Origin: an uncultured archaeon
Lineage (GTDB): Archaea > Altiarchaeota > Altiarchaeia > IMC4 > SCGC-AAA252-I15
Direction of reading: 5' to 3'
Length of the DNA: 59,292 bases
Assembly (NCBI GenBank): GCA_902384455.1
Contig: CABMCB010000068.1
Location: 1 to 59,292 of the forward strand
Both the position numbers and the translations under genes were made by a program. Of the stretch, positions 3,650-58,844 are shown in pieces; the stretch's first letter is position 1, and each line of letters opens with the position of its first letter. The notes beneath the pieces are model-generated. The model made no database searches, was not told where the DNA came from, and worked only from the letters and a program-made list of their open reading frames with translations.

Positions 3650-3650
3650 C

Positions 3651-4997: not shown

Positions 4998-5005
4998 GGT
5001 TTACC

Positions 5006-6457: not shown

Positions 6458-6491
6458 GTTTTTCCTCAAAAAAGCCCAAAATTTACAGTTT

Positions 6492-28294: not shown

Positions 28295-28639
28295 ATGGCC
28301 TACCTGGACATTGTGAACTGTGTATTCGAATTTGTAAGCGCTGGGGTTATCTGGTTAAGCGTGTGGCAGCTCTGGACTGATAAGGGTTCCAAAGGCATTC
28401 ACTGGACCCAAGCGGTCTTCTTCTCTCTTGAAAGCCTTTGGAACCTGCACTACTATAATACGTTAGGACAGCCGTTCAGTTTTGCTGCAGGTATCTTCGT
28501 ATTCTTCGGAAACTTAGCGTGGTTGTGGCTGGCTTTCGTGTGGTTTCGGAAGCTAACCGTCCCATTTTCACCAGCGCTCGGTTTACCAGGCTTTTTGCTT
28601 TACTTTGAGAAATTTTTAAAGTCTGTGCGATTTCTCTAA
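28295..28639 (+). CDS. PQ-loop/SemiSWEET-like 3-TM membrane protein
   Basis: Three TMs, QLWTDKGSKGIHW loop; AAGGGG RBS. Confidence 0.6.
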   Translation: MAYLDIVNCVFEFVSAGVIWLSVWQLWTDKGSKGIHWTQAVFFSLESLWNLHYYNTLGQPFSFAAGIFVFFGNLAWLWLAFVWFRKLTVPFSPALGLPGFLLYFEKFLKSVRFL

Positions 28640-29291
28640 AGTTCTGAGCAGGTAGGTCATTCAGACCGAAGTACCTGGAAATAACATCCAGCTCCTCAGG
28701 AAGCAGGCATACCATTAGGCGAGACAGCTCGTCACGAGCTTCCATACGCTCGATAGCCCGCTCGTCCGAATTATGGAGTCGGAAAGCGTTATCGAGCGAG
28801 ACGTTTTTAAACTCGTAGTTCTCCGGGTTATATTCAGAGTGGGGGTCGCCCTTGAGCTTTTCCTTGAACGTCTTTCCCTGGGACTTCGCCTTCTCATATC
28901 TCTTCTTCATCTTCATGTTGGCATAATGGAAGCTTCCAGGGATTCGGACGAGACGAGACTTGTCCTCCAAAGCCCGAAGGATACTTCCGAAGATGTACCA
29001 ACCTGCATGAGTGCTAAACCGTACATTCTTCCGGTAGTCAAAGCACCGAGCAGCCCGAATAAGACCAATGTTTCCCTCTTGGATGATATCAGTCTGGGTC
29101 ATACCCATACTGGTGTAACGGCGAGAAAGGTGGATGACGAGGGGGAGGTTAGCCTCCACCAATTCTTGAATGGCCGTCTGGTCGCCCTTGAGTAGCCGCT
29201 TACCAAGAGCACGTTCCTGCTCTTTGGTCAGGCGGTTAAATACACGAGCGATGTCATTTCGGTATCGGGTAGTGTCTTCAGGTTGGAGCAT
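28476..29291 (-). CDS. RNA polymerase sigma-70 family factor (copy 2)
   Basis: LVEANLPLV, DIIQEGNIGLIRAARCFD, RFSTHAGWYI, SRLVRIP, region 4 HTH. Confidence 0.9.
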   Translation of the reverse strand: MLQPEDTTRYRNDIARVFNRLTKEQERALGKRLLKGDQTAIQELVEANLPLVIHLSRRYTSMGMTQTDIIQEGNIGLIRAARCFDYRKNVRFSTHAGWYIFGSILRALEDKSRLVRIPGSFHYANMKMKKRYEKAKSQGKTFKEKLKGDPHSEYNPENYEFKNVSLDNAFRLHNSDERAIERMEARDELSRLMVCLLPEELDVISRYFGLNDLPAQNFREIAQTLKISQSKAKSLVNRALVKMGRLASETTRKPATTTLSFRRIRRYLQQN

Positions 29292-30126
29292 ATTCAATTA
29301 ACCGTTTCCGGCGTCCGCGAAGTTTAACGAGAGCCTTAGTATAACGGGAATGGATGTTCTGGTATGTACAGCCTTGGAGCTTCCCAATCTGTCTGAAGTC
29401 TAAGCGTTCCTTTCCGTTTAACCCGAAAAGGAGTTCAATGATTTCCCGGTCACGCGGTTTTAAGATTTTAAGCAGAGTATCCAAGGCTTCGTTTCTTTTA
29501 TCTTGGAAATCCTTGTTATCCACCTGCTTAAACTCTTCCAGGGACCTGGGGTCCGGGAACATGTTTACGAACAGCATCGGTTTACCAGTATGACTCGTTG
29601 GGACCTCTTTGTCAAGGCTGACTTCACGGTAGGTGCTCAAATGAGCCAGCTCTTCAATCGTTGACATCTTCAAGTACTTCAAGCGAGTCTTGAGAGCTTT
29701 TTTCGTCGGGAGCTTTCCTTTTCTGATATCGGAAGACATCTTTCGAGTCTTTTGGGATACTCTCACAAGACGAGACTTACGGCTGATGGCCCCGAACAAG
29801 CGGTGCTTGACGGAGTAATATGCGTAGGTAGCAAAGCACACTTTTTTGGAAGGGTCGTAGGTGTTGACGGCCCGGATAAGTCCCAGGTTACCTTCTTGAA
29901 TGAGGTCGGAAAAAGGAATACCGCAACCCACATACCTCTTGGAGAGGTAGATAGGGATTTTCAGGTTGTGCTTAATAAGGAGTTCTCGGGATTCGGTATC
30001 CTCTGGGTTGTGTTGGATACGTTGGCCAAGCTCAATCTCTTGGGCTTTAGTCAGCCTGGGGATTGTCTGCACCATAGCGCAGTACTTGTCAGCGTCTTCT
30101 AAAGTTCCGCCATTCAAGAAAGACAT
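29278..30126 (-). CDS. RNA polymerase sigma-70 family factor (copy 1)
   Basis: LTKAQEIELG, DLIQEGNLGLIRAVNTYD, FATYAY, SRLVRV, region 4 HTH. Confidence 0.9.
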   Translation of the reverse strand: MSFLNGGTLEDADKYCAMVQTIPRLTKAQEIELGQRIQHNPEDTESRELLIKHNLKIPIYLSKRYVGCGIPFSDLIQEGNLGLIRAVNTYDPSKKVCFATYAYYSVKHRLFGAISRKSRLVRVSQKTRKMSSDIRKGKLPTKKALKTRLKYLKMSTIEELAHLSTYREVSLDKEVPTSHTGKPMLFVNMFPDPRSLEEFKQVDNKDFQDKRNEALDTLLKILKPRDREIIELLFGLNGKERLDFRQIGKLQGCTYQNIHSRYTKALVKLRGRRKRLIEYAPT

Positions 30127-38057: not shown

Positions 38058-38432
38058 ATGGTATTCGTAGGGAACCTCCGTAAAGGGGCTGTCAACCCTT
38101 CAGGAAAGAGATTCCGAGTGGACCGCTCCAGCCCACTCGGAAACCCTTTCTGGATGCAGTCTGAATTCCACAGGGATGCTGTGTGCGACGAATACGACCG
38201 CTGGTTCCACGAGTCCATCCTCAAGGGAGGTCCCCTCACCCCTCTTGAAAACAAGAATGACAGTATCCGAAAAGCATGGGATTACCTTCTCATGCTCCTT
38301 GACGAAGCTCGAAAAGGCGACATTGTCCTGATGTGCTGGTGTACTCCGAAGCGCTGCCATGCTCAAACCATTTCCAAGTGGATTACGGAACAGTTAGAGG
38401 GAACTACGAATGACAACGTACAAGGACTTTGA
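38058..38432 (+). CDS. DUF4326-like protein
   Basis: VDRSSPLGNPF...LMCWCTPKRCHA. Confidence 0.85.
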   Translation: MVFVGNLRKGAVNPSGKRFRVDRSSPLGNPFWMQSEFHRDAVCDEYDRWFHESILKGGPLTPLENKNDSIRKAWDYLLMLLDEARKGDIVLMCWCTPKRCHAQTISKWITEQLEGTTNDNVQGL

Positions 38433-38883
38433 GGACGCAGTTCAAGCGAACAAGGACAAGTGGGACCGTCGCTTCTTGGAAATGGCTAAGTTGGTGTCTA
38501 CCTGGAGCAAGGACCCCTCCACACAGACCGGCGCGGTGATTGTTCGACCTGACAAGACTGTTCTCTCCGTAGGATTCAACGGGTTTCCCAAGAGAATGCA
38601 GGACACCCCCGAACTGTATGCCGACCGCGAGGTCAAGTACAGTCGAATCATCCACTGTGAAATGAATGCGGTTCTCCACTCCCCTGAATCCGTCAATGGG
38701 TGCATCCTTTACACTTACCCGTTCGCTTCTTGCGACCGCTGTGCAGTCCACATGATTCAGGCAGGAATTTCCCGTTTTGTATTCCCCAAGCTACCTGAGG
38801 ATAAGGTAGAACGGTGGGGAGAAGCCTTGAAAAAGTCCATCGCTTATTTCAACGAATCTCGGGTGGACTGGACGGAGCTCTGA
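38410..38883 (+). CDS. dCMP deaminase
   Basis: WSKDPSTQTGAVIV, GFNGFP, HCEMNA, SCDRC. Confidence 0.93.
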   Translation: MTTYKDFEDAVQANKDKWDRRFLEMAKLVSTWSKDPSTQTGAVIVRPDKTVLSVGFNGFPKRMQDTPELYADREVKYSRIIHCEMNAVLHSPESVNGCILYTYPFASCDRCAVHMIQAGISRFVFPKLPEDKVERWGEALKKSIAYFNESRVDWTEL

Positions 38884-45540: not shown

Positions 45541-46091
45541 ATGCAAAACCATGAAATGTTTGGATTTCCTGGAGAAGTAATCGCCATCTGTAAAAAGTGT
45601 GGGTTTATACTTACAATGGAAGATGCGCTTAGAGTACATTTCGAAGTTACTCAAGACCCTTGTTCAGGAAATCCGACCAAGTTATTTGTGAGTCACATTT
45701 ATCCAGAATTTAGTGACTCTCAAGTAAAAGAATTAGCTATAATGCCTTCCGGTAAAATAGTAGTGATGGTAGAGGACAATCCAGGATATCCAGAGTCTTT
45801 ATGGTTCTATCCGAACGGAACAAATCCGAAAAGTAGGCTTTTGTTTAAACACGACTTGGAAACTAATAAACCATGACCAACGAACAAGCCTATGAAAAAG
45901 CCTGCGACCTTTGGGGCACTGACGCCTGGGTGGAGTGGAGTGCTCCCTGGGACAAGACCCTCCTGGCCAGGCCCTACCGTGTGGGCGCGGGACGGATGGA
46001 AAATATGTCCTGGAAGAACACCCACTATGGAACCGGGGAATGCTGGGAAGAGGCTTTCGAGAACGCCGCTAGACCCACACGCCGAAAGTGA
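45541..46091 (+). other. Two hypothetical ORFs (45541-45876 AT-rich; 45873-46091)
   Basis: Coupled ORFs. Confidence 0.55.
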
Positions 46092-47144: not shown

Positions 47145-47567
47145 TTAGGCTATGGCCTCCTCCTTGACGGCCTCAAGGCCTTCGAAGGCCTCAACCGTTT
47201 CGGGGTTGTCGTCCACGGTCGGGGCGGCTTGGGGCGTTTCGTCCATGCGGTCGTTCTCGGCAAGGAAAGACAGGTCAAGGGCGCGGCCCATGACAGCGGT
47301 TAAGGGCGCTTCCGTGGTTTCGTCCGGTTCCACCATGAAAGGGGTGGAAGCGGCGCGGCGCGGCGTGTATTCCTTGGAAGGGTTACGCTTGGAAACCCGA
47401 AGGCCGAAACCGTCCTTATAGCCTTCCTTGAGGTGGGAAAGGTCCGTATCCACGGAAGGGCCATAAAGGCCCATGATGATGCGGCGCGTCCTTTCCTTCT
47501 GGATACGCTCCCGCTTGATGTTGTTACGGCGGATTTTCTGAACCTTGCGGATGGTTGCGGCTTGCAT
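47145..47567 (-). CDS. Early hypothetical protein
   Basis: Own promoter, AAGGGGG RBS; basic N-half, acidic C-half. Confidence 0.7.
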   Translation of the reverse strand: MQAATIRKVQKIRRNNIKRERIQKERTRRIIMGLYGPSVDTDLSHLKEGYKDGFGLRVSKRNPSKEYTPRRAASTPFMVEPDETTEAPLTAVMGRALDLSFLAENDRMDETPQAAPTVDDNPETVEAFEGLEAVKEEAIA

Positions 47568-47900: not shown

Positions 47901-48135
47901 GGGGGCTAAAACGTTTTAGTGATATGGGAAAACTAAAACGTTTTAATGGAAAGGGGGCTAAAATCGTTTCAAGGTATTGAGGCTGACAAGGCACGGGCTT
48001 AAAACGTTATGAGGTAAGGACCTCGACAAGGGCGGGGCTAAAATCGTTTCAAGGTATGGGACGCGACAAGGGAAAGACTAAAAACGTTATAAGGTTGTGG
48101 ATAAAAAAGGCTTGCCCTAAAATCGTTCTTAGGTT
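47901..48135. repeat. Degenerate tandem repeat array (40-bp period) with DnaA box
   Basis: CGTT cores at 47912, 47939, 47965, 48005, 48045, 48085, 48124; TGTGGATAA at 48096. Confidence 0.8.
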
Positions 48136-48163
48136 TATATTGTGGTGTCGGTTATTTTACAGG

Positions 48164-48508
48164 TTAGAAGGGCAAGCCCTTTGCTTGTCTTATGGTATTT
48201 TGTACGGCCTCAAGTGTAGGCCGGGCCGTTATCCTGTCATGATAATCATCGAAGGCGTTTTCCAGGAATTCCTCGACATGCTCAAGGGTTTTCAACATAT
48301 CAGGCGCGGCCCCGATTAAATCAAAATCGGCCCTTGCCTGCTCTTGTGCTCCCGGGAAAAGGTGGAGGTTATACCCGCTACGGCAAACCGTGCGGTTTGT
48401 CTTGACACCGAAAAGGGTTTTCCCATCGGGGGTCACAACGTCGAAACTATCGCCGGGGTTGCGCGGGGGTAGGACCTTCCAGGTGGGGGCCGCTGTGTTT
48501 GTTACCAT
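48164..48508 (-). CDS. Early hypothetical protein
   Basis: LIGAAPDML, a common phage LIAAAPELL-type motif. Confidence 0.7.
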   Translation of the reverse strand: MVTNTAAPTWKVLPPRNPGDSFDVVTPDGKTLFGVKTNRTVCRSGYNLHLFPGAQEQARADFDLIGAAPDMLKTLEHVEEFLENAFDDYHDRITARPTLEAVQNTIRQAKGLPF

Positions 48509-48549
48509 GACCCCCCACCCCCTTTTTATTTACAGGCCTTGACTACTGA

Positions 48550-48642
48550 TTACTTCCACCGCTTGACTACTAGGAAAAGGCCCCCGTAAATCAGGATAAA
48601 CATTAACGGGGTGAAAGGCGCAAGGTTCGGGGCGTGGTGCAT
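48550..48642 (-). CDS. 30-aa hydrophobic peptide
   Basis: AAGGA RBS; MHHAPNLAPFTPLMFILIYGGLFLVVKRWK. Confidence 0.45.
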   Translation of the reverse strand: MHHAPNLAPFTPLMFILIYGGLFLVVKRWK

Positions 48643-48665
48643 GGTGTTGGTCCTTGTTTAGGTGC

Positions 48666-48770
48666 TGTTTGGGTGGGGTGGGCGTTCCTGGGGTCCTGTC
48701 GCGTACCCTGTAGGACCTGAGCCCTTCAGGAGGAACAACCTACTGCCAGGCTGGCCCGCCCCCTCCCAAC
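48666..48770 (-). ncRNA. Structured RNA or 5' leader
   Basis: Starts at predicted +1 of TTGACA-17-TATCAT; closing stem plus three hairpins. Confidence 0.55.
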
Positions 48771-48875
48771 AAAACCATGATACCACGTCCCCGGCCTGCT
48801 GTCAAGGGTTATTAGCCCTTGAATTCCGGCTCCTGGCTTTCCATGCTGTAACCCAAAACCTCCCCCTTTCCCGGA

Positions 48876-49091
48876 CTATTCCCAGTCCGTGTCATGCAAG
48901 GCCTCACGAACGGCCTTGACAATGGCTTTCTCGTCGAATAGGATATCTTCCAGGTATTCGACCCGCACCCCGCGCCGTCCGTCCGCATCCGCCCCATAGG
49001 CGGGGTCCACGGTTTTGGTGGCTTTGGCTTCGAAGGTGAATTCTTTCCCGTTGGGTAGTTCGATGGTGAATTCAGCGGAGACTTGCGGCAT
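48876..49091 (-). CDS. Early hypothetical protein
   Basis: ATG 49091 after AGGGGG; DPAYGADADGRRG. Confidence 0.7.
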   Translation of the reverse strand: MPQVSAEFTIELPNGKEFTFEAKATKTVDPAYGADADGRRGVRVEYLEDILFDEKAIVKAVREALHDTDWE

Positions 49092-49155
49092 GGTCGGCCC
49101 CCTGTGTCGTTCAACGTGAGAACATATTACCACGGGGGGCCGGACCTGTCAAGGG

Positions 49156-49473
49156 TTACTTGAGGGCCTTAAGGGCCTTATCCACGGCCACCCGGAAGGT
49201 GTCCACGTCCACCCAGGCCCCGCCGTTGAAAGAAACCTGCAATTTGTCGTTTTCGGGGTTGAGGCGGAAAGACCCCAGGTTAGCCAAGGTGCCGGGGTTG
49301 TTGCTCCCGCCCGTCACGGCCACCTCGATGATGTCTTGCCCCGCCACCTCGTGGGCCTCGACACGGGCCCCCAGGTTCCAGCCCCGGACGTGGCCGGAAA
49401 GGCCGCTTTGCTTGGTGCCCATGCGTGTTGCTTGCCCGCGATTGCCTTGCATGCTCCCGTAGAATTGCGCCAT
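49156..49473 (-). CDS. Early hypothetical protein
   Basis: MAQFYGSMQGNRGQATRMG; own promoter and RBS. Confidence 0.75.
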   Translation of the reverse strand: MAQFYGSMQGNRGQATRMGTKQSGLSGHVRGWNLGARVEAHEVAGQDIIEVAVTGGSNNPGTLANLGSFRLNPENDKLQVSFNGGAWVDVDTFRVAVDKALKALK

Positions 49474-49582
49474 GACTTGCCCCCTTGCGTTTCGGTATCT
49501 GCTACCGTGAAAACATTATATCACGTTTTAAGGGATTGTCAAGGGCCTTGCGGGGTTGGGGTGGGTTGGGCTATAATCTTGC

Positions 49583-49618
49583 AAAAAAAGGCCCCTAGCG
49601 TGTAAACTAGGGGCCTTT
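49583..49618 (-). terminator. Intrinsic terminator
   Basis: AAAGGCCCCTAG...CTAGGGGCCTTTTTTT. Confidence 0.85.
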
Positions 49619-49638
49619 GGGTAGGGCTTGGGCGGGGC

Positions 49639-49971
49639 TTACTTGGCCCGCTTCTTTAGTTCGGCCTTGACGGCCTTAGCCAAGGGGCCGCACCACGTGG
49701 AAGCGTTGCAGGTGAAATAAAGGACGATTGACGCCCCGCTGTCCATGCCGTAGGTGTCCTTGACGTTTTCCAGGTCAAGCATTGCGTCAAGGTAGGGGGC
49801 CGCTGTGGGGTGGATGCGCCCGCCTTTCCAGTTCTTTTTGTCAGCGTACACCAGCCCCGCGATTTCCCGGATGGACAGGCTGTCCAGTTTGGGAAGGGTT
49901 AAGGGCGTCTCAGACACTACGCGCCCCTGTGGGCTTTTCTCGTCCACCACGGCCACGATTAAATCCCCCAT
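49639..49971 (-). CDS. Early hypothetical protein
   Basis: ATG 49971; AAPYLDAM...YGMDS...VLYF..NASTW. Confidence 0.75.
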   Translation of the reverse strand: MGDLIVAVVDEKSPQGRVVSETPLTLPKLDSLSIREIAGLVYADKKNWKGGRIHPTAAPYLDAMLDLENVKDTYGMDSGASIVLYFTCNASTWCGPLAKAVKAELKKRAK

Positions 49972-50078
49972 GCTATGCCCCCTTGTGTTCAGCGTGATAA
50001 CATCATAACACAAAATAAAAAATAGTCAAGCGTTATTTTATTCTTGACACGCAGGCGGGACCGTGGTATCATGTTGTT

Positions 50079-50184
50079 AGTAGGCCACAAGGCCGGGGGA
50101 GGTACTCGTACACCTTAACAACGGATATCGTTTTTAGTCCCCCAAAATAAAAAGCCCTCGACCCTTGACAGGTCGGGGGCTTTT
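50079..50184 (+). ncRNA. Small RNA copy 1
   Basis: TTGACA-17-TATCAT promoter, terminator at 50147-50184, no start codon after GGAGG, homologous to 51584. Confidence 0.6.
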
Positions 50185-50199
50185 GTGCTACGTTGGCCG

Positions 50200-50538
50200 T
50201 TACTTGGGGGCCTTCGTCACCACCACCTTGAGCGATTCCACGGGGAAGGTGTTGATGAGTTTCTTGGCTTTCAGCAGGTCTTCACCGAATTCCCGGATGG
50301 TTTCCTCCAGGCTGATGGAATCCCGGTCGTAGGACGTCACCACGGCGGACAGGCCGTCCACGTCCATGGTGCGGCTGTCGCTCTTCTCACCCTTCACCTT
50401 GGGGATGCCCCGGACCTCGATTTCCTCCAGGATGACGGCCTTGAGTTCCGCCTTGCGCTTCTCGGCCTTGGTGAAGGCCGAAGCCACCTGCCGGTACTCC
50501 GCCAGCACCTTCTTGATGTCCGCATTCGCCGTTGCCAT
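50200..50538 (-). CDS. Early hypothetical protein
   Basis: Own promoter, AGGGGG RBS. Confidence 0.7.
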   Translation of the reverse strand: MATANADIKKVLAEYRQVASAFTKAEKRKAELKAVILEEIEVRGIPKVKGEKSDSRTMDVDGLSAVVTSYDRDSISLEETIREFGEDLLKAKKLINTFPVESLKVVVTKAPK

Positions 50539-50773
50539 ACACTACCCCCTGACTACTGGATTCGGTCACTGTCGACCGTGAAAACATGATATCACGTCAT
50601 TACTGGATTGTCAAGGATTGAATTTCTTTTTTAATTGTGTTAATCTCATTCCACGAATCTATATCAATTTGCTTCCACCCCTCCAACACGCGCAGGCGCA
50701 ACCGCAGGAATTCCAGGCGGTGGGCTTTCTCGTCTATGGCAGGTTGGGCGGTGGGTTTGGGGGTTCTCACGGT

Positions 50774-50977
50774 TCAGGCCTTGCCCACGGTATACCACTT
50801 GGAAACGTGGGCATTATAGTCGTCGGTGCCGGGGATGAGGTCGGGGCGCGTGTCCTTGACGTATTCCTCAAGGAACGTATTGCAGGCTTGCAGGGTATCG
50901 AGGCCAAAGATAACTTCGGATGCCCCCTCGTATACCCGGTACCCCCCTGCCGTTTTCTTCTTGCCCCTGTACCGCAT
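50774..50977 (-). CDS. Early hypothetical protein
   Basis: Own promoter, GAGGAGG RBS. Confidence 0.65.
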   Translation of the reverse strand: MRYRGKKKTAGGYRVYEGASEVIFGLDTLQACNTFLEEYVKDTRPDLIPGTDDYNAHVSKWYTVGKA

Positions 50978-51135
50978 GGCCCCCTCCTCGACTACTGGAC
51001 TACTGACATATTACCAGGATAGGCCCCTCTTGTCAAGGGCCTTGACGGCCTTGCGGTTGTATGCTTTCTTGGAGCCCTTAACCTTGGGGGTTGTCTTGAT
51101 ACCCCAGACACGGCGGGCCCTGTCTTTGGCCTTGA

Positions 51136-51477
51136 TTAGTATGCGGTCGTGGGGCATTCCAGGCCAAGCCCTTTCAGGATTCGCCGGTAAACCTCGGCCT
51201 TGGACATGTAATAATCATAATGCTGTTCGCCGGGCCGGAAGTTCGTCCACATGTTGGCGGACACGTTGCGGGTGATATCCAGGGTGAGGGTGCCGGGTAT
51301 GCGGTAATAATCCATGAAACCGGCCCGGCTATAGTGGGCGATGAAGCCCGAGGCGAGGTACAGGAAATTGTACCCCGTGGAATTCAGAGCGGTGATGTCG
51401 TTGCAGGCCTTCAGGACATTGGCCACAATGCGGTCTTGCATGGCCTTGGTCAACGGAAGAATCGGCTTGTTTGGCAT
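51136..51477 (-). CDS. Early hypothetical protein
   Basis: YNFLYLASGFIAHY; own promoter and RBS. Confidence 0.75.
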   Translation of the reverse strand: MPNKPILPLTKAMQDRIVANVLKACNDITALNSTGYNFLYLASGFIAHYSRAGFMDYYRIPGTLTLDITRNVSANMWTNFRPGEQHYDYYMSKAEVYRRILKGLGLECPTTAY

Positions 51478-51583
51478 GTTGCCCCCTTGTGTTCAGCGTG
51501 GATACATAATACCGCATTACTAGACTACTGTCAATATAATTTATTTTGTTGACAGGCTGGGGGTGCCGTGGTATTATGGTGTC

Positions 51584-51695
51584 AGTAGGCAATGCGCCGA
51601 GGGAGGTACTCGTATACAATAATAACGGATAACGATTTTAGGACCATATAAAAGGACGCCCCCACCACCCCAGGGGGCCGGGATGGTGGGGGCTG
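51584..51695 (+). ncRNA. Small RNA copy 2
   Basis: TTGACA-17-TATTAT promoter; homologous to 50079; followed by GCCCCCACCA/TGGTGGGGGC hairpin. Confidence 0.6.
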
Positions 51696-51737
51696 AATTC
51701 CAGTGGACGAGGGGGCCCGTCCATGGTATCCTGTAGG

Positions 51738-51929
51738 CTAGACCGTGGCGCGATGCGCGGCCCGGAAGGCCCGGGTCACCAACCGACGGCGGGCCGGGGT
51801 CCAATGCTGGGCCTTGAGGCCCAAGGTGGCGAGGATGGCCAGTTCCCGGAGGATATTCCCCGTGCGCTTGAGACGGCGCTTGGTGGTGGTGGCTTTGGCG
51901 AGGTAGTAATTCCCCGGACACTTTTTCAT
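51738..51929 (-). CDS. Basic early hypothetical protein
   Basis: ATG 51929 after AGGGGG. Confidence 0.55.
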   Translation of the reverse strand: MKKCPGNYYLAKATTTKRRLKRTGNILRELAILATLGLKAQHWTPARRRLVTRAFRAAHRATV

Positions 51930-51994
51930 TCTCAACCCCCTAAGGTGGTTTGTCCTTCCCATCACCTACATACTACCACACTACTGGACTACTG

Positions 51995-52729
51995 TCAAGC
52001 CTTTTCGAGGAGGGTCAAGGCGGGGTCCACCACGAATCCCGAGGTATCCTTGCGGGCCTTGCCCTTGGCAATGAGGCCCACAATGGCCCCCTGATAGCCT
52101 TCCTCGAAACGGAGGTCGGTCTTATCCCCGTTCAAGACCTTGCGGCCCAAGAATTCCTTGGGTAGGCTCTTCCCACGGAAGACCACGGCGACATTGATAC
52201 CGGCCTCAAGGGCCCGCATCACGTCCACCATATTACTCTCGGACCTGGAAAATGTCAAGTGGTAATTCGCCACTTGGTTTTCCAGGGCTTTCTTGATATC
52301 CTTGGTGTAGTCGTAGAATTGAATATCGGGGAAGGCCTCAAAGACGGTCTTTCCCTGATAGGGGCGGAAAGCCCCAAAATTGATGTCGGACGTGCCATTG
52401 AGGCGGACGAAAGCCTTCTTACCCGTCCGCAAGGCGGACCGTTGCAGGGCTTCCAGTTCCTCGAAAAGGGTTTGGAAAAACAGGTCCTTGTTCTTGAACC
52501 ACAAGGCGGTTTTCCTCAACCGGCCCTTGATGACAGGGGCCATGACACCCCGGCCCGCTGTGAAAAGGCAGGATTCCTTGCATCCTTGGGAAGCGAACGG
52601 GCAAAGGTTGCCCATACCGCTTTGTTTCTCCGGGGTCAGGTACAGGATAGACCCCACATAGCCCCCCTTGGCTATGCTCTTGGCGGTCTTGTAGTTCTTG
52701 CTTGCGGCTGATAGGACGTTGTCGGCCAT
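51995..52729 (-). CDS. Gene product 88 (GP88)-like Cys-motif protein
   Basis: LCPFASQGCKESCL, VRLNGTSDI, FYDYTK, YHLTFSRSE, GDKTDLRF. Confidence 0.8.
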   Translation of the reverse strand: MADNVLSAASKNYKTAKSIAKGGYVGSILYLTPEKQSGMGNLCPFASQGCKESCLFTAGRGVMAPVIKGRLRKTALWFKNKDLFFQTLFEELEALQRSALRTGKKAFVRLNGTSDINFGAFRPYQGKTVFEAFPDIQFYDYTKDIKKALENQVANYHLTFSRSESNMVDVMRALEAGINVAVVFRGKSLPKEFLGRKVLNGDKTDLRFEEGYQGAIVGLIAKGKARKDTSGFVVDPALTLLEKA

Positions 52730-52829
52730 GCCTTGCCCCCTTGTGTTACTTGCAACGTGGATACATAATAACACAAGCCCACGGATTGTCAATCATAATC
52801 CGAGGGCTTGTATTTCAGGCTTGGCCGTG

Positions 52830-53072
52830 CTACCTTGAGGATAACCGCACCTTTCTCTTTTCCTCCCTCTTCCCATCCCTCAGAATGACCAGCCGCTGCA
52901 GGTCCATGAGGTCTTGCAGGCCGAGTTGTATCTCCAGGCACGTGCTCTCGATGGCATGCCTCTTGGGGCCCGAGGACAGAATACGAGCGTCCCTCTTGGC
53001 CTTGGAAACCATCTTGAAAACCTCAGTGTAGGCCTCCAATTTGTTCCCCGCTTCCAGAACCAAGCTCTTCAT
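52830..53072 (-). CDS. Hypothetical protein
   Basis: AAGGAGGT RBS, own promoter. Confidence 0.65.
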   Translation of the reverse strand: MKSLVLEAGNKLEAYTEVFKMVSKAKRDARILSSGPKRHAIESTCLEIQLGLQDLMDLQRLVILRDGKREEKRKVRLSSR

Positions 53073-53260
53073 GCTTGACCTCCTTGCAATGATGAATCAT
53101 CCTACCACAGCCCCCTCCCTCCGTCAAGGGGCTTGACAACCCCCCACCCCGTGTGCTATACTGGAGGTTTGGCCATTATTATTCACGACTACTGGACTAC
53201 TGAGCCTTGTCAAGAAACTAATCACTTGACTACCGGACTACTGTGTGGTACAGTGGGGCC

Positions 53261-53449
53261 ATGGATAAAAGCCGCTGTCATAAAACCGAAAAGCCTGACC
53301 CTTCCTATGCGGCCCATTTGAGGCTCCTTCGTAAGCATTGGGAAGGAAAGTTGGAATACGCTAAGCAACACGACTATGAGGGAGTAGACTTGCCCCAAGG
53401 TGTTATTCAAGGCCTTTCAATAGCCATCACCCTCCTCGAACAAGGCTAA
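53261..53449 (+). CDS. Hypothetical protein (leaderless)
   Basis: TTGACT-17-TACAGT with ATG 7 nt later. Confidence 0.55.
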   Translation: MDKSRCHKTEKPDPSYAAHLRLLRKHWEGKLEYAKQHDYEGVDLPQGVIQGLSIAITLLEQG

Positions 53450-53632
53450 CCCCCTCCCCCTCAAGAGGTACCCCCACCCCCCCCACTGGACTACTAGACT
53501 ACTGAGCCCCCTTACGTGTGCGAGGGGACAGAGGGAGCACGGACAGGGGAATACTGGACTACTGGGTTGTCGTGTAAATTATTAAGCCCATAAAACCAAG
53601 GTATTACTGGACTATTGAGAACCCATCAATAA

Positions 53633-53686
53633 TGTAAAATTTTTTTACATGTAAAGGGACCTTACACAGTGTAAAGTTCTAATACA
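53633..53686. repeat. Three tandem TGTAAA-N5-(T/C/A)(T/A)TACA boxes
   Basis: 53633-53649, 53650-53666, 53670-53686. Confidence 0.65.
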
Positions 53687-53761
53687 CCCTACCAGTCAAC
53701 CCCCCAGTCCCTTTTATGATTGACTGGGAGTACCCGACTACTGTATCCTGGGACTACTGAG

Positions 53762-54068
53762 TTATTTGTCGAGGTAGAATGAGCACAGGAAGCAAGCGAC
53801 CATGACCACAAGGGATGTACAGTAGTAGATGGTCTTGGAGACGTTGCCTTTTTCGGAGTGGTATTTGGCCATTCCCATGCTATAGACCACCATCAGAACC
53901 ATCAAAGTCTTCAAGTCAATCCTCCTGGTGGGGTTTGGGTTCCCACTGTTGGCATGGGCCAAGGATGTCGTTCTCGGCCTCTTCCTCGGCCTTACGCCCG
54001 GAGTAGCCCAGGGAGAGGTAATGCTGGATACGCTCGGCAATGAGTTCTTCTTGGGCTCCCCGTGGCAT
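53762..54068 (-). other. Two small ORFs (53916-54068; 53762-53914 membrane peptide with TTG start)
   Basis: Promoter at 54126; AGGGGG and AGGAGG RBSs. Confidence 0.5.
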
Positions 54069-54129
54069 GTACTACCCCCTACCCTTAGGATGACTACAGC
54101 GTACCAGGGAAAGGGTGAAGTGTCAAGTA

Positions 54130-54309
54130 TTACTTGACTACTGATTTTCCCTTGTATTTCACACACGGACGTGGTATGATGCCCCTGCGGCATTGTACCT
54201 TGCTCTTCCTCTCGCACCCTACGGCCTCATGGGGGTCGCTCCCAGTGCAGAACCTGCAATGGGAGGACCTTTTATCGGTGTCGGGGCAGATGTATGGGGT
54301 CTTGGGCAT
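54130..54309 (-). CDS. Cys/His-rich small protein (59 aa, not in ORF track)
   Basis: TAATG coupling; YICP...C..C....PH....C...PCVKY. Confidence 0.6.
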   Translation of the reverse strand: MPKTPYICPDTDKRSSHCRFCTGSDPHEAVGCERKSKVQCRRGIIPRPCVKYKGKSVVK

Positions 54310-54821
54310 TACTTACCCGGGTAGGCCACGGCCCATAGTTTCTCACCGATGGCCTGCAGGGGGGCCGAAATGCCGTCGTTGTCCTTGTCCAGGGCGTCCA
54401 GGCAGTCCACCAGGGCCTTGCATTCCTCCTTGGTGAGGAGTACCGTGGTGGGGGCAGGCTTGGGGGACTTGACGGCCTTGAGGGTCACGGTCACGGTATG
54501 GCCCCCGTCGTCGGTGTCGACCAAGACGTAGTCCTCGGAGGGCTTGCGGAAATAATCCGTGTCCTTCAGCACCTGGGACCACTGCTCCTTGAACAGGTAG
54601 CAGGGGTCACCCACGTACACGCCCGTCTGGGTCTTGACAAGGCCCTTGGCCTCGCCATACCCGCGCACCTTGAGGGTGGCGTTCACGGGGCCCTTGGCGT
54701 CGATGTAGGTACACGTGGGATAGAACGAGGTGGGCCGGTATTTGCCCTTGTACTTGGCGATGAATTCCTTCGAAACCACCGCCACCATCCCCGCATCCAC
54801 CGGCACGTCCGTGAGTCTCAT
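54309..54821 (-). CDS. Hypothetical protein
   Basis: ATG 54821 after GGAGG; VDAG and VGDPCY motifs. Confidence 0.7.
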   Translation of the reverse strand: MRLTDVPVDAGMVAVVSKEFIAKYKGKYRPTSFYPTCTYIDAKGPVNATLKVRGYGEAKGLVKTQTGVYVGDPCYLFKEQWSQVLKDTDYFRKPSEDYVLVDTDDGGHTVTVTLKAVKSPKPAPTTVLLTKEECKALVDCLDALDKDNDGISAPLQAIGEKLWAVAYPGK

Positions 54822-54911
54822 GTATGCCTCCCCTATTAGGATGACTATATAATATCCGATTTTATTGTTACTGTCAATACACATTAAACGAATTTAATAT
54901 GTAATATAATA

Positions 54912-54947
54912 AATAAAAGGCCGTGCGGAGGGGAACCGCACGGCCTT
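54912..54947 (-). terminator. Intrinsic terminator
   Basis: AAGGCCGTGCGG-loop-CCGCACGGCCTTTTATTT. Confidence 0.85.
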
Positions 54948-54978
54948 GACCTGCGTGGGTTGGGGTGTTATGATGCCC

Positions 54979-55218
54979 TTACTTCAACCCCTCCACCATG
55001 CTCAAGCGGGTGGCCTTGGGCCAGTTCTCCGCCCGCGCAACCACGCGCCTGATGGCCCGGTTGATGTCGCCCTTGTCGGCGTCACAGATGTACCGGGGGA
55101 CCGAGGAACCCTTGCCGGTGTCTTTATCCCGGCTGAATTCCGTGTGGTCGAAGGACAAATTGCCCTTCTTGGTCTTGCAGATGTAGCACTGCTTGACCTC
55201 GTCGTTCGCATTCGCCAT
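54979..55218 (-). CDS. Zn-binding hypothetical protein
   Basis: CYIC...ICDAD; GAGG RBS. Confidence 0.65.
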   Translation of the reverse strand: MANANDEVKQCYICKTKKGNLSFDHTEFSRDKDTGKGSSVPRYICDADKGDINRAIRRVVARAENWPKATRLSMVEGLK

Positions 55219-55301
55219 GGCAGACCTCTCAGGTGGTGTTGTCGACTACTGACCCAGTATATCCTACCTGGGTCAGTATGTCAACCCCTGGGACTACCAG
55301 A

Positions 55302-55754
55302 CTACTCGAATTTCCGGGCCTTCACCAGCTCGTCCAGGGTCCAGCGGCGCACCAGCTTGGCCTGGGACAGGTCCTTCATGCCCCAAGGGGTGGAGTACAC
55401 CTCGACCCCGAAGTCCTTGGTGATGCGGTAGGCGAACTCGATGTCCCCGTGCCACTGGGTGTCGATTCCGTGGGACAGGAAATCCTGCTTGAACTTCCGG
55501 TTGGCGTAGGCCGGGTCGTTGGGGTAGGACTTCTTCATCTTGCGGTTGAAGGCCTTGCGGTCGGTCACGTCGTCCTGGATGAGGGTGGCCGACAAGTGGG
55601 CCGTCAGGTACGCTGGGTCCCACCCTCGTCCATCCTCGAAGGCGGGCAGAAGCTTCTTGAGTGTCGGAAGCACCCCCGAAGGGTACCCGTCGCAATGCTT
55701 GTACACCTTGGCCTCCTCGTTCTCCTCGACCACTAACTGGCACCGAGTGCTCAT
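55302..55754 (-). CDS. Phage protein with YxHxDGYP motif
   Basis: VYKHCDGYPSGV...HGDIEFAY. Confidence 0.75.
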   Translation of the reverse strand: MSTRCQLVVEENEEAKVYKHCDGYPSGVLPTLKKLLPAFEDGRGWDPAYLTAHLSATLIQDDVTDRKAFNRKMKKSYPNDPAYANRKFKQDFLSHGIDTQWHGDIEFAYRITKDFGVEVYSTPWGMKDLSQAKLVRRWTLDELVKARKFE

Positions 55755-55868
55755 GTCCTTCCCCTTTTCCCCTGTATTATCAACGTGAGAGCATAATACC
55801 TGAATATCCTGCCGCTGTCAATATATTATTTTGGCTTGACAAGGGAATATATTTCGAATATATTGGGG

Positions 55869-56000
55869 GTGTAGTGAGCGGCGCAAGCCGTTAGTCTGGC
55901 TGGGGTCTATCCCCTAACCCGGGAGAAAGCCCTTTACTGCGAAAGCTTTAAGCCACGTAGGGAGCACAGCCTTGGAATCGTGGCCTCACTACGCTTTTAT
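55869..56000 (+). ncRNA. Multi-branched structured RNA
   Basis: TTGACA-17-TATATT; closing stem GTAGTGAG/CTCACTAC; GCAA and GAAA tetraloops; U-rich tail. Confidence 0.65.
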
Positions 56001-56019
56001 TTCATAGGGGAGGTTGTTC

Positions 56020-56325
56020 ATGCCGGAGCCATTCAAAATCAACGGCAAGCATGCCTGCTACGTGGCATTGCACAACGGCATCGGTTTGGTGGTCGAGGGT
56101 GAGCAAGGCTACCACCCCGTGTGCGAGGGCTATAGTGGCCCCAACACCATGAAGGCCTACCAGGACTGGGTGGACGAGCGCAACAAGAACCTGGGCGTGT
56201 CCGAGGAAGACGCCAACGCCCTCCACATCGGGTCCATGATGGGCTGGGATGTCCCCGGCGCGGGGCGCTTCCGCCAGGGGTACAAGTGGCCGGTACCCAT
56301 CACCCGCACACCATGCCGCGCCTGA
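56020..56325 (+). CDS. Hypothetical protein
   Basis: GGGAGG RBS; GSMMGWDVPGA. Confidence 0.7.
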   Translation: MPEPFKINGKHACYVALHNGIGLVVEGEQGYHPVCEGYSGPNTMKAYQDWVDERNKNLGVSEEDANALHIGSMMGWDVPGAGRFRQGYKWPVPITRTPCRA

Positions 56326-56344
56326 GTACTTGACGAGCGCTTGA

Positions 56345-56500
56345 CTACTGAGGCCTCTTCCTGCGGGGAGAGGCCTTTTTATTTGTCTTTTTTACTTGAC
56401 GGGTACTTGACAGTTCTCCGCGAGAGGCCTTTACGTAGGCCTCCTCGATTTCCTTGGCAACTTCTTTGCGGTATTGACTTCTCGTATCGAAGACGTACAT
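56345..56500 (-). CDS. Small basic hypothetical protein
   Basis: GGAGG RBS, ATG 56500. Confidence 0.5.
   Translation of the reverse strand: MYVFDTRSQYRKEVAKEIEEAYVKASRGELSSTRQVKKTNKKASPRRKRPQ
56351..56384 (+). terminator. Intrinsic terminator
   Basis: AGGCCTCTTCC-TGCG-GGGAGAGGCCTTTTTATTT. Confidence 0.8.
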
Positions 56501-56591
56501 GGCACCCCTCCCAGTGTATCCAGTATACACAATGTCAAGTTTAATGTCAAGAATACTTGACTACTGAGGATTTATTTGATAGAGTGTTTTA

Positions 56592-56903
56592 ATGAAAATA
56601 TGTCCCTTAGCCTCCACCTGTAAAAGCACCTGCTACCACAAGCAGCCCCATCAGCGTACGGGCAGCTCTTGTGATTTTGGGGTATCCGACCTATCAAGGT
56701 GCCAGCCTTGTATTGAATATACAGGCGATGTTCAGAATCAGCAGGCTACTCAGGCACCCGCTGTACCAGAGGACCAGCAGTACATTTGCCCCAAGCTGGA
56801 GTGCAGTGAACGAAAAGGCTGCAACCACGCTAACCCACACTCCGAGCGTACAGCCTGCCATTCTTTTGACAGGAAAAGCTGTGTTCCGTGTATCTTTGCT
56901 TGA
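56592..56903 (+). CDS. Cys/His-rich two-repeat protein (leaderless)
   Basis: Two ICP...C...C.H..PH...C...C.PCI units; TTGACT-17-TAGAGT. Confidence 0.7.
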   Translation: MKICPLASTCKSTCYHKQPHQRTGSSCDFGVSDLSRCQPCIEYTGDVQNQQATQAPAVPEDQQYICPKLECSERKGCNHANPHSERTACHSFDRKSCVPCIFA

Positions 56904-56933
56904 CTTACTGATTATTTTATAGTATAATACACC

Positions 56934-57074
56934 ATCGGCTAGACTCCCTTGCCGTCCGAGGCCACGGTTAATACCCGTCCGCCCTAAGAAATATCGGGCC
57001 GGTACCTGGGTAGGGTCCAAACCTCCCTACTACTGGCAATAACAACAGGGAGCCGTGCGCCCTCTATAGGGCTT
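56934..57074 (+). ncRNA. Multi-branched structured RNA
   Basis: TTGACT-17-TATAAT; CTCCCT/AGGGAG and TTGCC/GGCAA closing stems; no ORF. Confidence 0.55.
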
Positions 57075-57084
57075 GACTACTGGC

Positions 57085-58153
57085 CTACAGGTGTACATCG
57101 GGCATACTAATATATTTGCCCATGTTCCATACACGACGTTCCATATCATCACGCAAGCGCATAGCCCAATCTATGTCGACCTTGTAGTGGGCGGAGGTAC
57201 CCTCCAGCATAGGACCGGGTACACCACATGTAGCAGCAATGAGGTCACCCTTAAACTGGTTTATAGCTTGAGCACTGAAATCAAAGGACTGAAATGCTGG
57301 CATGGTATAACCATGTCTTAATACAACCAAACACTTATCACAGCCCGCATGACACTTCTTGCACGTGGTTTGGTACCACGAGTTGGTCATGCTCTGTACG
57401 TCTTTGATATCCTCCCCACAATATGTACGTCCAGTAATGGGGTTTAGGTTGTGAGTATCGCTTAGCACTGGGAGTCTCCTAGCTGGAGGCTTCGCCTTGG
57501 GGCTTGGTCTTCTTCACGAGGGCTTCAATGACAAGGTCGCGTTGTTCGATTTCAGATTTCAAAAGCTCAATTTGTTTCAGGGCTTCGAGGTACATTTGGG
57601 TTTGACACGGTCTGTCCTCGAAGTTGTGCTCACACCGACCTGGAGGGCTGCAGTCAGCCGCAATCGAGAATTCCTCTTCGGGTGTCAAGGGAGGTATGTC
57701 CCAGTAAATAGCCATGTTTTACTTCCTAAAGATGCTGATGGACTGAACCTTCGTGATTTTGGCATTCAAGCTCAGGTCTTCCACTTCGCGGTAGAACTTC
57801 TGGGCTTGCTCAGCCACCTTGACGAACGCTTCCTTATCCTCATCAAGGAGTGCCTGGGCTCCATTGTCGAAGAGGTTGTCACAGTGTCCGCTGATGTCGG
57901 GCATGTTCAGGTCGACACCCATACCATGGAACTTGTCCATGTACCACGCAATGCTTCGGGCCCACGAAACGATGTCCAGCCTCAAGGACCACACGGTCAA
58001 GTCGTTCGAACTGGTGCAAAAGCTACCGTCGCTCACCTCGTGCACGTGTCCGTCTTCGACCCGCTTGACCTGGACAAGTTTGTAGTTGTGCATTCCCCAG
58101 TCACCTACCTTGGGGGTCCAGCCCGTGTTGTACTTTCGGTCAAGCACTCGCAT
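57085..58153 (-). other. Three hypothetical ORFs (57085-57468, 57479-57715, 57719-58153)
   Basis: Tightly packed minus-strand operon. Confidence 0.65.
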
Positions 58154-58844
58154 TGAAGGTGTCTCCCACGATTCGCTCAAGGTTGATTTTCTTCCAGATG
58201 GGAATCTTCGCAGCCTGCAGGGCCCGTACCAGTCTCACGATTTTTTCCTTGGAGGGCTCGGGCAGGCCGGACTTCTTGGAATCAGCTCCGATGTTGACGA
58301 ATTCAGGCTTGAGGTCCTCAAGCCATTCGACCATAGTCTCCACGTCGAAATCGAGAATGGGTTCGATGGTCACGAACTTCTTGACACGTCCGAGGCTCAT
58401 CATGCCTTGGTAGCGGTCATACGGACGGACAGCTTTGGAAATCTCCGAGTAGTCTCGGTTGCTTTCGATGGTTGTACCGACTAGACAGTCGGGGAACACG
58501 TCGAATCGAAACTCTTTCAGGCGGGGTGCGTTCTTGGTCTGGAAGACGTACTTGTTCTTCGGATACTGAAAGCAGTGATTCAAAATGGCAGCCACCCACG
58601 GGTCTTTCACACCTGGGGCGAACATGTCATTCATGTGCTCGATGAAGATGGTCTTACCCTCACCGTAGTTGACCTGGAACTCATGCTCAAGCAGGCGGAT
58701 AGGGCCCTTGTATTTCTCACTGAGCTGAGCCCTGCCACGCTGAACATAACAGTACGAGCACTCGTGAGAGCAGCGGCCACCCAAATGCGTGTGCATATGG
58801 GTGACCCAGTCGTACATTTGACCAGAAGCCTTAACGAGTGGCAT
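58140..58844 (-). CDS. Radical SAM protein (DUF5131/Gp37Gp68-like)
   Basis: CSHECSYCY CxxxCxxC; IFIEHMNDMF, FQTKN, FVTIEPIL. Confidence 0.85.
   Translation of the reverse strand: MPLVKASGQMYDWVTHMHTHLGGRCSHECSYCYVQRGRAQLSEKYKGPIRLLEHEFQVNYGEGKTIFIEHMNDMFAPGVKDPWVAAILNHCFQYPKNKYVFQTKNAPRLKEFRFDVFPDCLVGTTIESNRDYSEISKAVRPYDRYQGMMSLGRVKKFVTIEPILDFDVETMVEWLEDLKPEFVNIGADSKKSGLPEPSKEKIVRLVRALQAAKIPIWKKINLERIVGDTFNASA

Follow-up and report, generated by a model that had tools for sequence, protein, structure and literature searches.

What does a short DNA word do when it recurs, on one strand only, within one part of a phage genome? The window (the whole stretch of 59,292 nt analysed here) is, to judge by its sequence, a fragment of an SPO1-like myovirus, whose full genome is probably much larger than 59 kb; its contig belongs to an archaeal bin, and the phage signals are of bacterial type. 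The original prediction had placed 18 copies of the octamer GACTACTG on a single strand, and an exact search of the window returned precisely these 18, from 48541 to 57075, all on the + strand, with no exact copy on the − strand of the whole window and none in the remaining 50.7 kb outside 48541-57082. Dinucleotide shuffles of the window (100, both strands counted) hold 1.54 copies on average and five at most, and none of the 100 reaches 18.

48541..57082, + strand: all 18 exact octamers, reading CAGTAGTC on the gene strand (exact search; with up to one mismatch, counted from base 46001 onward, 28 copies on + against three on −)

The word-dense region stands alone, since the remainder of the assembly (2.35 Mb) holds 48 forward and 48 reverse copies, that is no enrichment, and comparable arrays are absent from it. 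As a look for Chi-type skew, this balanced count describes the archaeal bin, whereas the phage signals are of bacterial type. Chi and KOPS are genome-wide host words of strict strand polarity, single copies of which are read by moving enzymes; the word resembles them in its strict polarity, but is local, paired and embedded in promoters. The original prediction had offered, as one of two readings, a directional signal for the entering DNA end, which a translocase or nuclease would read on linear DNA as Chi-like protection or a KOPS-like guide. Strict polarity would suit such a signal, and the region may be near a genome end, if only by analogy with the SPO1 terminal redundancy (PMC10531801). 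Phased 8-bp pairs and a fixed promoter register are, however, unexpected of Chi or KOPS, and confinement to 8.5 kb of the 59 kb fits equally badly, which leaves this reading unsupported and, in our view, very improbable.

The copies had also been described as mostly intergenic, and indeed 17 of the 18 lie entirely outside our own gene calls, the remaining one overlapping a doubtful ORF by 6 nt, in a span (48000-57500) of which 69% is coding; the binomial value for this placement, 2.5e-8, is to be read with the non-independence of tandem copies, and with gene calls of our own making, in mind. Individual sites include:

48541..48572, + strand: two single units in an intergenic stretch upstream of ORF 48164-48508, spaced by 24 bp
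54128..54143, + strand: degenerate and exact unit, away from any consensus promoter
56343..56377, + strand: single unit adjoining a two-way terminator-like hairpin (56350-56377)
57075..57090, + strand: exact unit and unit with two mismatches, in the short interval separating ORFs 57085-57468 and 56694-57020

Relatives were found by means of an anchor gene:

51995..52792, − strand: GP88-family gene (PF17338), the anchor

Eighty metagenome loci with a relative of this gene were surveyed, five of which hold at least two copies of the word (gene strand/other: L041 14/0, L042 6/0, L040 4/0, L044 3/0, L059 23/0). The word and its polarity are thus common to five metagenome relatives, or to four independent ones, since the site offsets and identical blast rows of L042 suggest a shorter, overlapping version of L041. 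A word array stands upstream of the GP88-family gene in every word-bearing relative, L040, L041, L042 and L059 among them.

On the gene strand the unit reads C-AGTAGTC, with a 7-bp core AGTAGTC. The predicted 8-bp tandem pairs are there: two consist of exact copies (50990/50998 and 53187/53195) and four of an exact copy and one with a single mismatch (51979, 53228, 53489 and 53549). Allowing up to two mismatches in the 7-nt core, the window has 18 sites (six single, 11 double, one triple), and the window and four relatives together have 60 (23 single, 35 double, two triple), 37 of which are multi-unit, head to tail and at a spacing of exactly 8 bp. The first unit of a pair is nearly invariant and the second looser at positions 1, 6 and 8, whilst the order of units is always direct, exact heptamers standing 78 times on the gene strand and once on the other. 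Nor are the copies all TTGACT −35 boxes, since in only six of the 21 exact heptamers in the window do the two next bases complete that hexamer, and only three + strand promoter-like sites use it as −35.

The word-bearing block, 12.7 kb of small leftward genes, holds 37 host-type promoter-like sites against 7.7 expected; promoters are here consensus matches only, to a bacterial-type consensus. In the window, 17 of 28 such sites have no copy within 80 bp, and word-bearing promoters agree with the host consensus in 10-12 of its 12 positions; a search of 50,697 phage records returned no similar promoter. Eleven sense promoters (two in the window, four in L041, five in L059) carry the word at −30..−24, often with a second unit at −22..−16, and four carry it at the start site (those at 55284 and 51036 in the window, one in L044 and one in L059). 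The window sites of these and related layouts are:

51970..51998, − strand: promoter-like site (consensus match), its 17-nt spacer filled by word pair 51979-51994; its −35 box and the stop codon of gene 51995-52792 overlap; pair-bearing orthologues in L041 (3089) and L059 (2324)
51506..51534, − strand: promoter-like site matching 11/12 of the consensus, with the word at −30..−24 and a degenerate second unit
50990..51036, − strand: promoter-like site 51036-51008, with exact pair 50990-51005 over the predicted start and ending at the ribosome-binding site of ORF 50774-50977
55244..55284, − strand: promoter-like site 55284-55256, with word 55244-55251 at about −1..+6, upstream of Zn-ribbon-like ORF 54979-55218; layout repeated in L044, degenerate unit in L041
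50551..50614, − strand: promoter-like site 50614-50586, followed at about +21..+28 by a single word (50551), which immediately precedes the ribosome-binding site of ORF 50200-50538

Six antisense promoters have the word at −33..−19 and three orthologous ones at +19..+33. Divergent promoters retain the genomic orientation of the word, in agreement with the claim that this orientation is independent of promoter direction:

53133..53162, + strand: conserved divergent promoter-like site, with pair 53187-53202 at about +18..+33, antisense to the promoter; identical layout in L041 and L040
53226..53254, + strand: second divergent promoter-like site, with pair 53228-53243 over the −35 box and spacer, in genomic, not promoter, orientation; orthologues in L041 (1868) and L040 (360)
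56551..56585, + strand: weak promoter-like site 56557-56585, whose −35/spacer contains the word; a degenerate unit precedes the word on its 5′ side, and − strand promoter 56550-56522 stands back to back with the site

Such promoter anatomy would suit an activator as it suits a repressor, and the word could in principle serve positive control, a bound factor strengthening or timing these promoters or loading onto RNA polymerase there: an activator, for example, a protein that tethers polymerase, or an antiterminator that loads between the promoter boxes. Polymerase-loading factors depend on orientation relative to transcription, which could explain part of the polarity, and a small protein encoded at 47145-47567, with a basic N- and an acidic C-terminal part, recalls in its layout SPO1 Gp44, which binds DNA and RNA polymerase (PMC8208478). 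Nevertheless, promoters so close to consensus should need no activator, antisense promoters bear the word reversed at the same place, and the 47145-47567 protein has no sequence match in any phage record, so we give recruitment only a small chance.

In seven copies the distance from the end of the word to a start codon is 11-32 nt, and several of these directly adjoin a ribosome-binding site, a placement that a signal at the RNA level would account for too. In that case CAGUAGUC would be read in leftward early mRNAs by an RNA-binding protein or nuclease, or would pair with rightward RNAs carrying GACUACUG from the divergent promoters of the array, an antisense network leading to silencing or processing. 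Every copy lies on a single strand, as an RNA signal in mostly leftward genes would require, and the conserved promoter at 53133-53162 (also in L041 and L040) would start a transcript about 18 nt before the word pair. However, 11 sense promoters hold the word upstream of their own start and in an exact −35 register, which is needless for RNA, and RNAalifold gives the pair and its flanks from four genomes −4.12 kcal/mol, with compensatory change at one of 14 pairs. Rfam, too, has no match in the word region, its two matches in the window being tRNAs. On balance, we regard an RNA-level role as unlikely.

The densest part of the region is a noncoding array:

53187..53759, + strand: noncoding array of about 600 bp, with pairs 53187-53202, 53228-53243, 53489-53504 and 53549-53564
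53187..53759, + strand: further units of the same array, at 53602-53617 (degenerate pair), 53728-53743 and 53752-53759
53261..53449, + strand: small divergent ORF (62 aa) lying within the array, with weak conservation in L041 and L040; family scans gave no assignment

Three of its pairs can be aligned with L041 and L040 and hardly vary: in a three-way alignment of 65% mean column identity, 40 of their 42 core positions are invariant, the word being conserved across relatives while its flanks diverge. L041 and L040 share a fourth pair, which the window lacks at the corresponding position of the alignment. A dense array of same-sense units, noncoding and upstream of the same gene in relatives, with promoters and G/C runs alongside, might be taken for origin- or centromere-like iterons, that is a site of replication, packaging or partition, the promoter copies being then secondary and autoregulatory. 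Iterons, however, are usually 17-22 bp long and the units here 8 bp; over half of the copies are found away from the array, at many promoters and gene gaps over 8.5 kb, and no initiator, ParB-type or terminase gene was recognised beside it. We hold this interpretation to be decidedly improbable.

A relative nearly devoid of the word is informative in another way. In G001, which is closer to the window by its capsid (68% identical; the anchor gene is 66% identical), the first 40 kb contain 23 leftward promoter-like sites, as in the promoter-dense region of the window, but the whole 73 kb only two copies of the word, neither in a promoter spacer. A promoter-dense region without the word suggests that the latter is an added regulatory layer and not part of the promoter.

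The interpretation we favour, and consider probable by a slight degree, is that the word constitutes the operator and roadblock sites of a putative DNA-binding regulator, probably a repressor of early genes, controlling part of those that depend on the host polymerase. What the sequences show is the word itself, with its phasing, polarity, promoter registers and conservation, and a related early region that lacks it; from this we infer a protein reader, a repressive effect and the ‘early’ nature of the region. The reader would be encoded by the phage or, less likely, by the host. One protein subunit would bind each 7-bp core, and with adjacent subunits in a head-to-tail arrangement at 8-bp intervals a pair would span 16 bp. 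In one class of promoters the pair would fill the spacer that separates the −35 from the −10 box; a second class would have it over the start site or short leader, and in both the bound protein would exclude RNA polymerase and repress initiation. Copies in gene gaps and in the array may act as roadblocks to read-through, or the array may be a region of high-density loading or a sink. An early-gene operator was the other half of the original prediction, and this half gains from the promoter registers, gene gaps, phased pairs, conservation and word-less relative what the entering-end half does not. A candidate binder did not emerge, as scans of the window ORFs (Pfam, PHROGs, NCBIfam; 59 kb) gave no ribbon-helix-helix and no clear helix-turn-helix protein.

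A precedent lies with Cluster A mycobacteriophages, in which the L5-type repressor has asymmetric sites in promoters and in the short spaces between genes, their orientation being linked to transcription, and the stoperator is an asymmetric site of 13 bp to which the repressor binds as a monomer (PMC9283540, TipsytheTRex structure). The word resembles this system (L5 gp71-type) in its many copies, short asymmetric site, and location in promoters and intergenic gaps, but differs from it in having an 8-bp unit (7-bp core) mostly in head-to-tail pairs, instead of a 13-mer for a monomer, and in being limited to 8.5 kb of early genes in an SPO1-like phage with a contractile tail, instead of sites throughout a temperate siphovirus genome. 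In orientation, 78 of 79 heptamers follow the strand of the mostly leftward genes, but the word is not turned round at divergent promoters. Pfam scans of the window ORFs, which represent part of the genome, gave no gp71-type repressor or helix-turn-helix above threshold.

The pairing, on the other hand, recalls Omega/ParB of pSM19035, whose non-palindromic, abutting 7-bp units overlap promoters and bind one dimer each, two adjacent units being needed for tight binding (PMC9499535). Abutting units of 7-8 bp that overlap promoters, multi-unit in 37 of 60 sites, are alike; Omega, however, has runs of 7-10 units, direct and inverted, whilst here runs are of 1-3, direct only and with an 8-bp period, and among the ORFs scanned in 59 kb there is no ribbon-helix-helix gene. 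The P2-like C repressor, Cox and Apl bind directly repeated half-sites in early promoters and form head-to-tail oligomers (PMC1904268, PMC3936717 and PMC7498355), but their repeats lie about one helix turn apart (PMC7498355) and serve one temperate-phage switch, as opposed to 8 bp and a dozen promoters. Finally, some 13 kb of small genes of unknown function, many host-type promoters and SPO1-like structural genes are reminiscent of the SPO1 terminal redundancy and kayvirus LTR promoters, for which the portions available of PMC10531801 and PMC6445280 mention no conserved promoter-spacer word; the early proteins of the window have no match in the host-takeover modules of SPO1 or kayviruses.

Occlusion of promoters by an operator-bound protein needs no single orientation, yet 78 of 79 exact heptamers share one and divergent promoters retain it, which suggests that something beyond occlusion is at work. 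The word could be a direction-sensing element, a speculation to which we attach little probability, in either of two forms. In one, a head-to-tail protein array would stop or load RNA polymerase from one side only; if true, this would be a polar ‘stoperator’ shutting down host-takeover genes in a lytic SPO1-like phage. In the other, a two-strand RNA device, rightward RNAs with repeated GACUACUG from the conserved divergent promoters would pair with CAGUAGUC near ribosome-binding sites or between cistrons, one antisense RNA thereby silencing many early genes.

The bin of this contig is itself a caution that archaeal bins can hold phage contigs with bacterial signals. How SPO1-like phages time the shut-off of their host-takeover genes is understood only in part, and the literature searched on these phages, as far as its text was available, held no DNA word of this kind. 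The present lineage offers a clean case for its study, with a 16-bp site at a fixed place within consensus promoters, relatives with the word and one without it, and a polarity that goes beyond plain occlusion. Once found, the reader protein would provide a compact, portable repressor-operator pair for strong promoters of Gram-positive type, and could reveal whether polar roadblocks occur outside the temperate phages of actinobacteria.

Exact matches to the octamer GACTACTG (hereafter the word) number 18 in the 59,292-base window, all 18 on the + strand, and they lie at precisely the 18 coordinates for which one-strand copies had been claimed, with none elsewhere in the window. Dinucleotide shuffles of the window gave a mean of 1.54 copies and a maximum of 5, and 18 copies were reached in none of 100; when up to one mismatch is allowed, 28 copies on the + strand and 3 on the − lie at or beyond position 46,001. 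The rest of the 2.41-Mb bin, in which the window is one whole contig (C68), shows no such skew in a strand-specific count (48 copies forward, 48 reverse), and none of the remaining contigs holds a comparable array. The copies are also, as originally proposed, mostly intergenic: 17 of the 18 fall outside coding sequence within a span that is 69% coding, a count that uses our own gene calls and in which tandem copies are not independent. A two-site restriction enzyme can be escaped by avoiding inverted sites, and such avoidance could produce a strand bias, but it leaves an enrichment so far above chance unexplained and was rejected.

An archaeal RNase P protein subunit is encoded elsewhere in the bin (G000:C32:37623-37877), and a control search for it matched archaea only. 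The contig of the window shows promoters of bacterial type, Shine-Dalgarno sites and a pair of sigma-70-family genes, and is therefore probably a mis-binned bacteriophage fragment, so that the bin is unusable as host; a test of word skew with the bin as host was dropped because the bin is archaeal. The structural genes (PHROGs and tblastn) are those of a contractile-tailed, SPO1-like phage, with a major head protein 47% identical to its counterpart in Bacillus phage SP-10 and with tail sheath, baseplate and prohead protease genes also present; the window probably covers well under half of the phage genome. By analogy with SPO1-like phages, the two adjacent sigma-70-family genes of the window probably direct middle and late expression.

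Sigma-70-family genes of the window
28476-29297, minus strand: sigma-70-family gene with regions 2 and 4
29278-30126, minus strand: sigma-70-family gene with regions 2 and 4

Three neighbouring paralogous genes (2234-6469, −; 448-487 amino acids) have in common a C-terminal tail-fibre-related domain (phrog_863). The window also encodes a dNMP phosphatase (22763-23353, +) and a dCMP deaminase (38410-38883, +), a set that accompanies phages with a modified base replacing thymine.

Beyond about 46.6 kb, the rest of the contig is occupied by small ORFs, of which most point leftward and most have no family assignment. Interspersed with them are 37 promoter-like sites of the sigma-70 type (7.7 expected), many of which have TG preceding the −10 box. 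This block resembles the host-takeover module that is described as carried by the terminal redundancy of SPO1, with 24 genes in 13.2 kb (PMC10531801), and it is also like the long terminal repeats with host-type promoters described for kayviruses (PMC6445280); because of these resemblances we infer that it is an early region. It includes a DUF5131 (radical-SAM-like) protein (58140-58844, −) and a GP88-family protein (51995-52792, −), and no link was found between either of them and the word.

With the GP88-family protein as anchor, a search of metagenomes gave 80 loci, five of which have at least two copies of the word, always on the gene strand (gene strand/other: L041 14/0, L042 6/0, L040 4/0, L044 3/0, L059 23/0). 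L042 looks like a shorter overlapping copy of L041, with a constant site offset of 1,559 bases and identical blast rows against the window, and it was excluded from later counts. A further locus, L043 (1,069 bases, anchor protein 73% identical), has no octamer and one heptamer. Identity of the anchor proteins of these relatives with that of the window ranges from 74% to 50%, and L041 is syntenic with the window over 46.7-53.3 kb. Taking the window block, L041, L040, L044, L059 and L043 together, exact heptamers number 78 on the gene strand versus 1 on the other.

The exact 16-nt tandem occurs at 31 IMG/VR loci, none of them a relative and all of them chance pairs except L039, a microsatellite-like array. 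The promoter-plus-word pattern had no match in IMG/VR, and its three matches in species genomes, with one or two copies per locus and no array, were set aside as chance. Searches of cultured-phage records with the region and with one 42-nt promoter (megablast, blastn) gave nothing meaningful, no relatives of two early proteins were found in IMG/VR, and among the matches listed in a full-text literature search for the word, all were unrelated (cell, animal and method studies).

Read along the strand that encodes the leftward genes, the unit is C-AGTAGTC, with a variable first base and an almost fixed 7-nt core. The early block of the window and four relatives hold 99 units at 60 sites (23 single, 35 double and 2 triple); sites were seeded on exact cores and then extended to neighbours at ±8 bp with up to two mismatches, so that every one of the 60 has at least one exact core by construction. 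Within pairs, unit 1 is nearly invariant and unit 2 more variable at positions 1, 6 and 8. Close neighbours are spaced 8 bp apart in 8 of 13 pairs (window), 9 of 12 (L041) and 4 of 5 (L040). A Chi- or KOPS-like reading fits such anatomy poorly.

Exact cores were then placed relative to the predicted starts of promoter-like sites, defined by at least 5/6 matches in the −35 box and at least 9/12 overall. A core lies within 45 nt of the start in 17 of 54 sense promoters (those facing as the leftward genes do) and in 14 of 41 antisense ones. In 11 sense promoters a unit occupies −30..−24, the last two letters of the −35 box being the first two of the unit, and in several of these a second unit at −22..−16 makes the pair fill the 17-nt spacer; a twelfth case is truncated at the end of L059. 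In four sense promoters the word is at the start site.

Sense promoters with a unit at −30..−24 or with the word at the start site
Window, 51998 and 51534: unit at −30..−24
L041, 3089, 3877, 4953 and 7460: unit at −30..−24
L059, 1104, 2324, 2624, 3073 and 3590: unit at −30..−24
Window, 55284 and 51036: word at the start site
L044, 219: word at the start site
L059, 4755: word at the start site

A few sense promoters have the word at about +23..+30. Six antisense promoters have units at −33..−19, including an orthologous set (window 53226, L041 and L040), and three orthologous ones (window 53133, L041 and L040) have a pair at +19..+33. The original observation that the word keeps one orientation whichever way the promoter faces is thus borne out, the same core-promoter stretch being occupied both ways and the word never flipped. 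There is no copy within 80 bp at 17 of the 28 promoter-like sites of the window, including the whole 47.1-50.1 kb run. That the word could itself be the promoter of a phage sigma factor was rejected, as the arrays lack a −10 partner and the flanking boxes fit the host consensus.

Remaining copies in the window
48541/48565 and 57075: in short gene gaps
56343: adjoining a two-way terminator-like hairpin
53187-53759: noncoding array

In an alignment of the array from the window, L041 and L040, mean column identity is 65%, 40 of 42 core positions are invariant in the three aligned pairs, and the boxes of one divergent promoter are invariant too; a fourth pair is common to L041 and L040, with no window counterpart. 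One word pair is bracketed by a 7-8-bp inverted repeat, imperfect in the window (53168-53232) and in L041 (1868-1932) and perfect in L040 (365-410) and L059 (665-710 and 1041-1086); both arms are conserved in sequence, and the repeat may be a second protein site. Two short palindromes with similar half-sites, as well as long G or C runs, adjoin the word arrays of the noncoding region (53625-53680 and 53450-53490). In L041 the word array is interrupted by an inserted ORF of 117 amino acids (965-1318, +), a possible homing endonuclease in which inspection by eye showed paired Cys residues and a motif of H-N type. In L059, two almost identical stretches of about 50 nt, each a cassette of promoter plus leader, stand ahead of different genes (2324-2375 and 2624-2675), and word-bearing promoters seem to have spread by duplication.

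The IMG/VR contig G001 (72,981 bases) is a relative of the window phage by its capsid (68% identical) and anchor (66%) proteins, and 2 of the 28 early ORFs of the window are matched in it. Its first 40 kb hold 23 leftward promoter-like sites of the window type, with spacers unrelated to the word, which occurs twice in the entire contig; complements of ribosome sites and −35 boxes apart, no further 7-mer with strong strand bias stood out. As its promoters are present and their spacers lack the word, these promoters would function as a class without it.

Phased pairs, fixed registers over the −35/spacer stretch and the start site, and footprint-like conservation, together with the restriction of the word to some of the consensus promoters and the existence of a related early region without it, are jointly what would be expected of a protein-binding operator. 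Among described systems, the operator/stoperator network of Cluster A mycobacteriophages comes closest: there, according to PMC9283540, a monomeric repressor binds more than 20 asymmetric 13-mers in promoters and short intergenic spaces, whose orientation follows transcription and whose reversal abolishes repression. The 8-bp head-to-tail pairs of the word recall ribbon-helix-helix regulators such as Omega of pSM19035, described as binding 7-bp non-palindromic units that overlap promoters, with one dimer per unit and two units for tight binding (PMC9499535), and also the direct-repeat operators described for P2-like phages (PMC1904268, PMC3936717, PMC7498355). Since each of these families differs from the word system in at least one tested feature, the element is kept outside the Cluster A, Omega-type and P2-like families as a variant.

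As for the protein that reads the word, Pfam, PHROGs and NCBIfam revealed no ribbon-helix-helix and no convincing helix-turn-helix among the scanned ORFs of the window, and the sole NCBIfam match among 12 early ORFs was a weak radical-SAM one at 58140-58844. Two ORFs can be offered as leads only.

Reader-protein leads
47145-47567, minus strand: small basic-N/acidic-C protein, conserved in L041 (9089-9535)
54979-55218: Zn-ribbon-like ORF; in the window and L044 its promoter has the word at the start, in L041 a degenerate form

The first, which has 12 K+R among the 35 N-terminal residues and 17 D+E among the 66 C-terminal ones, recalls SPO1 Gp44 as described in PMC8208478, by layout and not by sequence, and possibly combines DNA-binding with DNA-mimic parts; it had no sequence match among phage records. 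The second has no family in the protein atlas. The small divergent ORF at 53261-53449 was discarded as a reader because its identity of 29-42% between genomes with an invariant word is too low.

Repression would be the simplest effect of a word-bound protein, as the promoters already agree with the host promoter consensus in 10-12 of its 12 positions. The copies in gene gaps might then act as roadblocks, and the noncoding array as a region of dense loading or a sink. Occlusion does not account for the strict polarity, which may come from a polar roadblock, head-to-tail spreading, a role at the RNA level, or the history of duplicated promoter cassettes. The evidence for an RNA-level role is suggestive: copies adjoin ribosome-binding sites, and the conserved divergent promoters would yield complementary rightward RNAs. 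For the repeat-flanked pair, no consensus fold was supported by RNAalifold; an Rfam scan of the window returned only two tRNAs, both outside the word region. Within this group of phages, the word, a candidate operator through which early promoters would be repressed, is an extra layer gained, or retained, by one sublineage.
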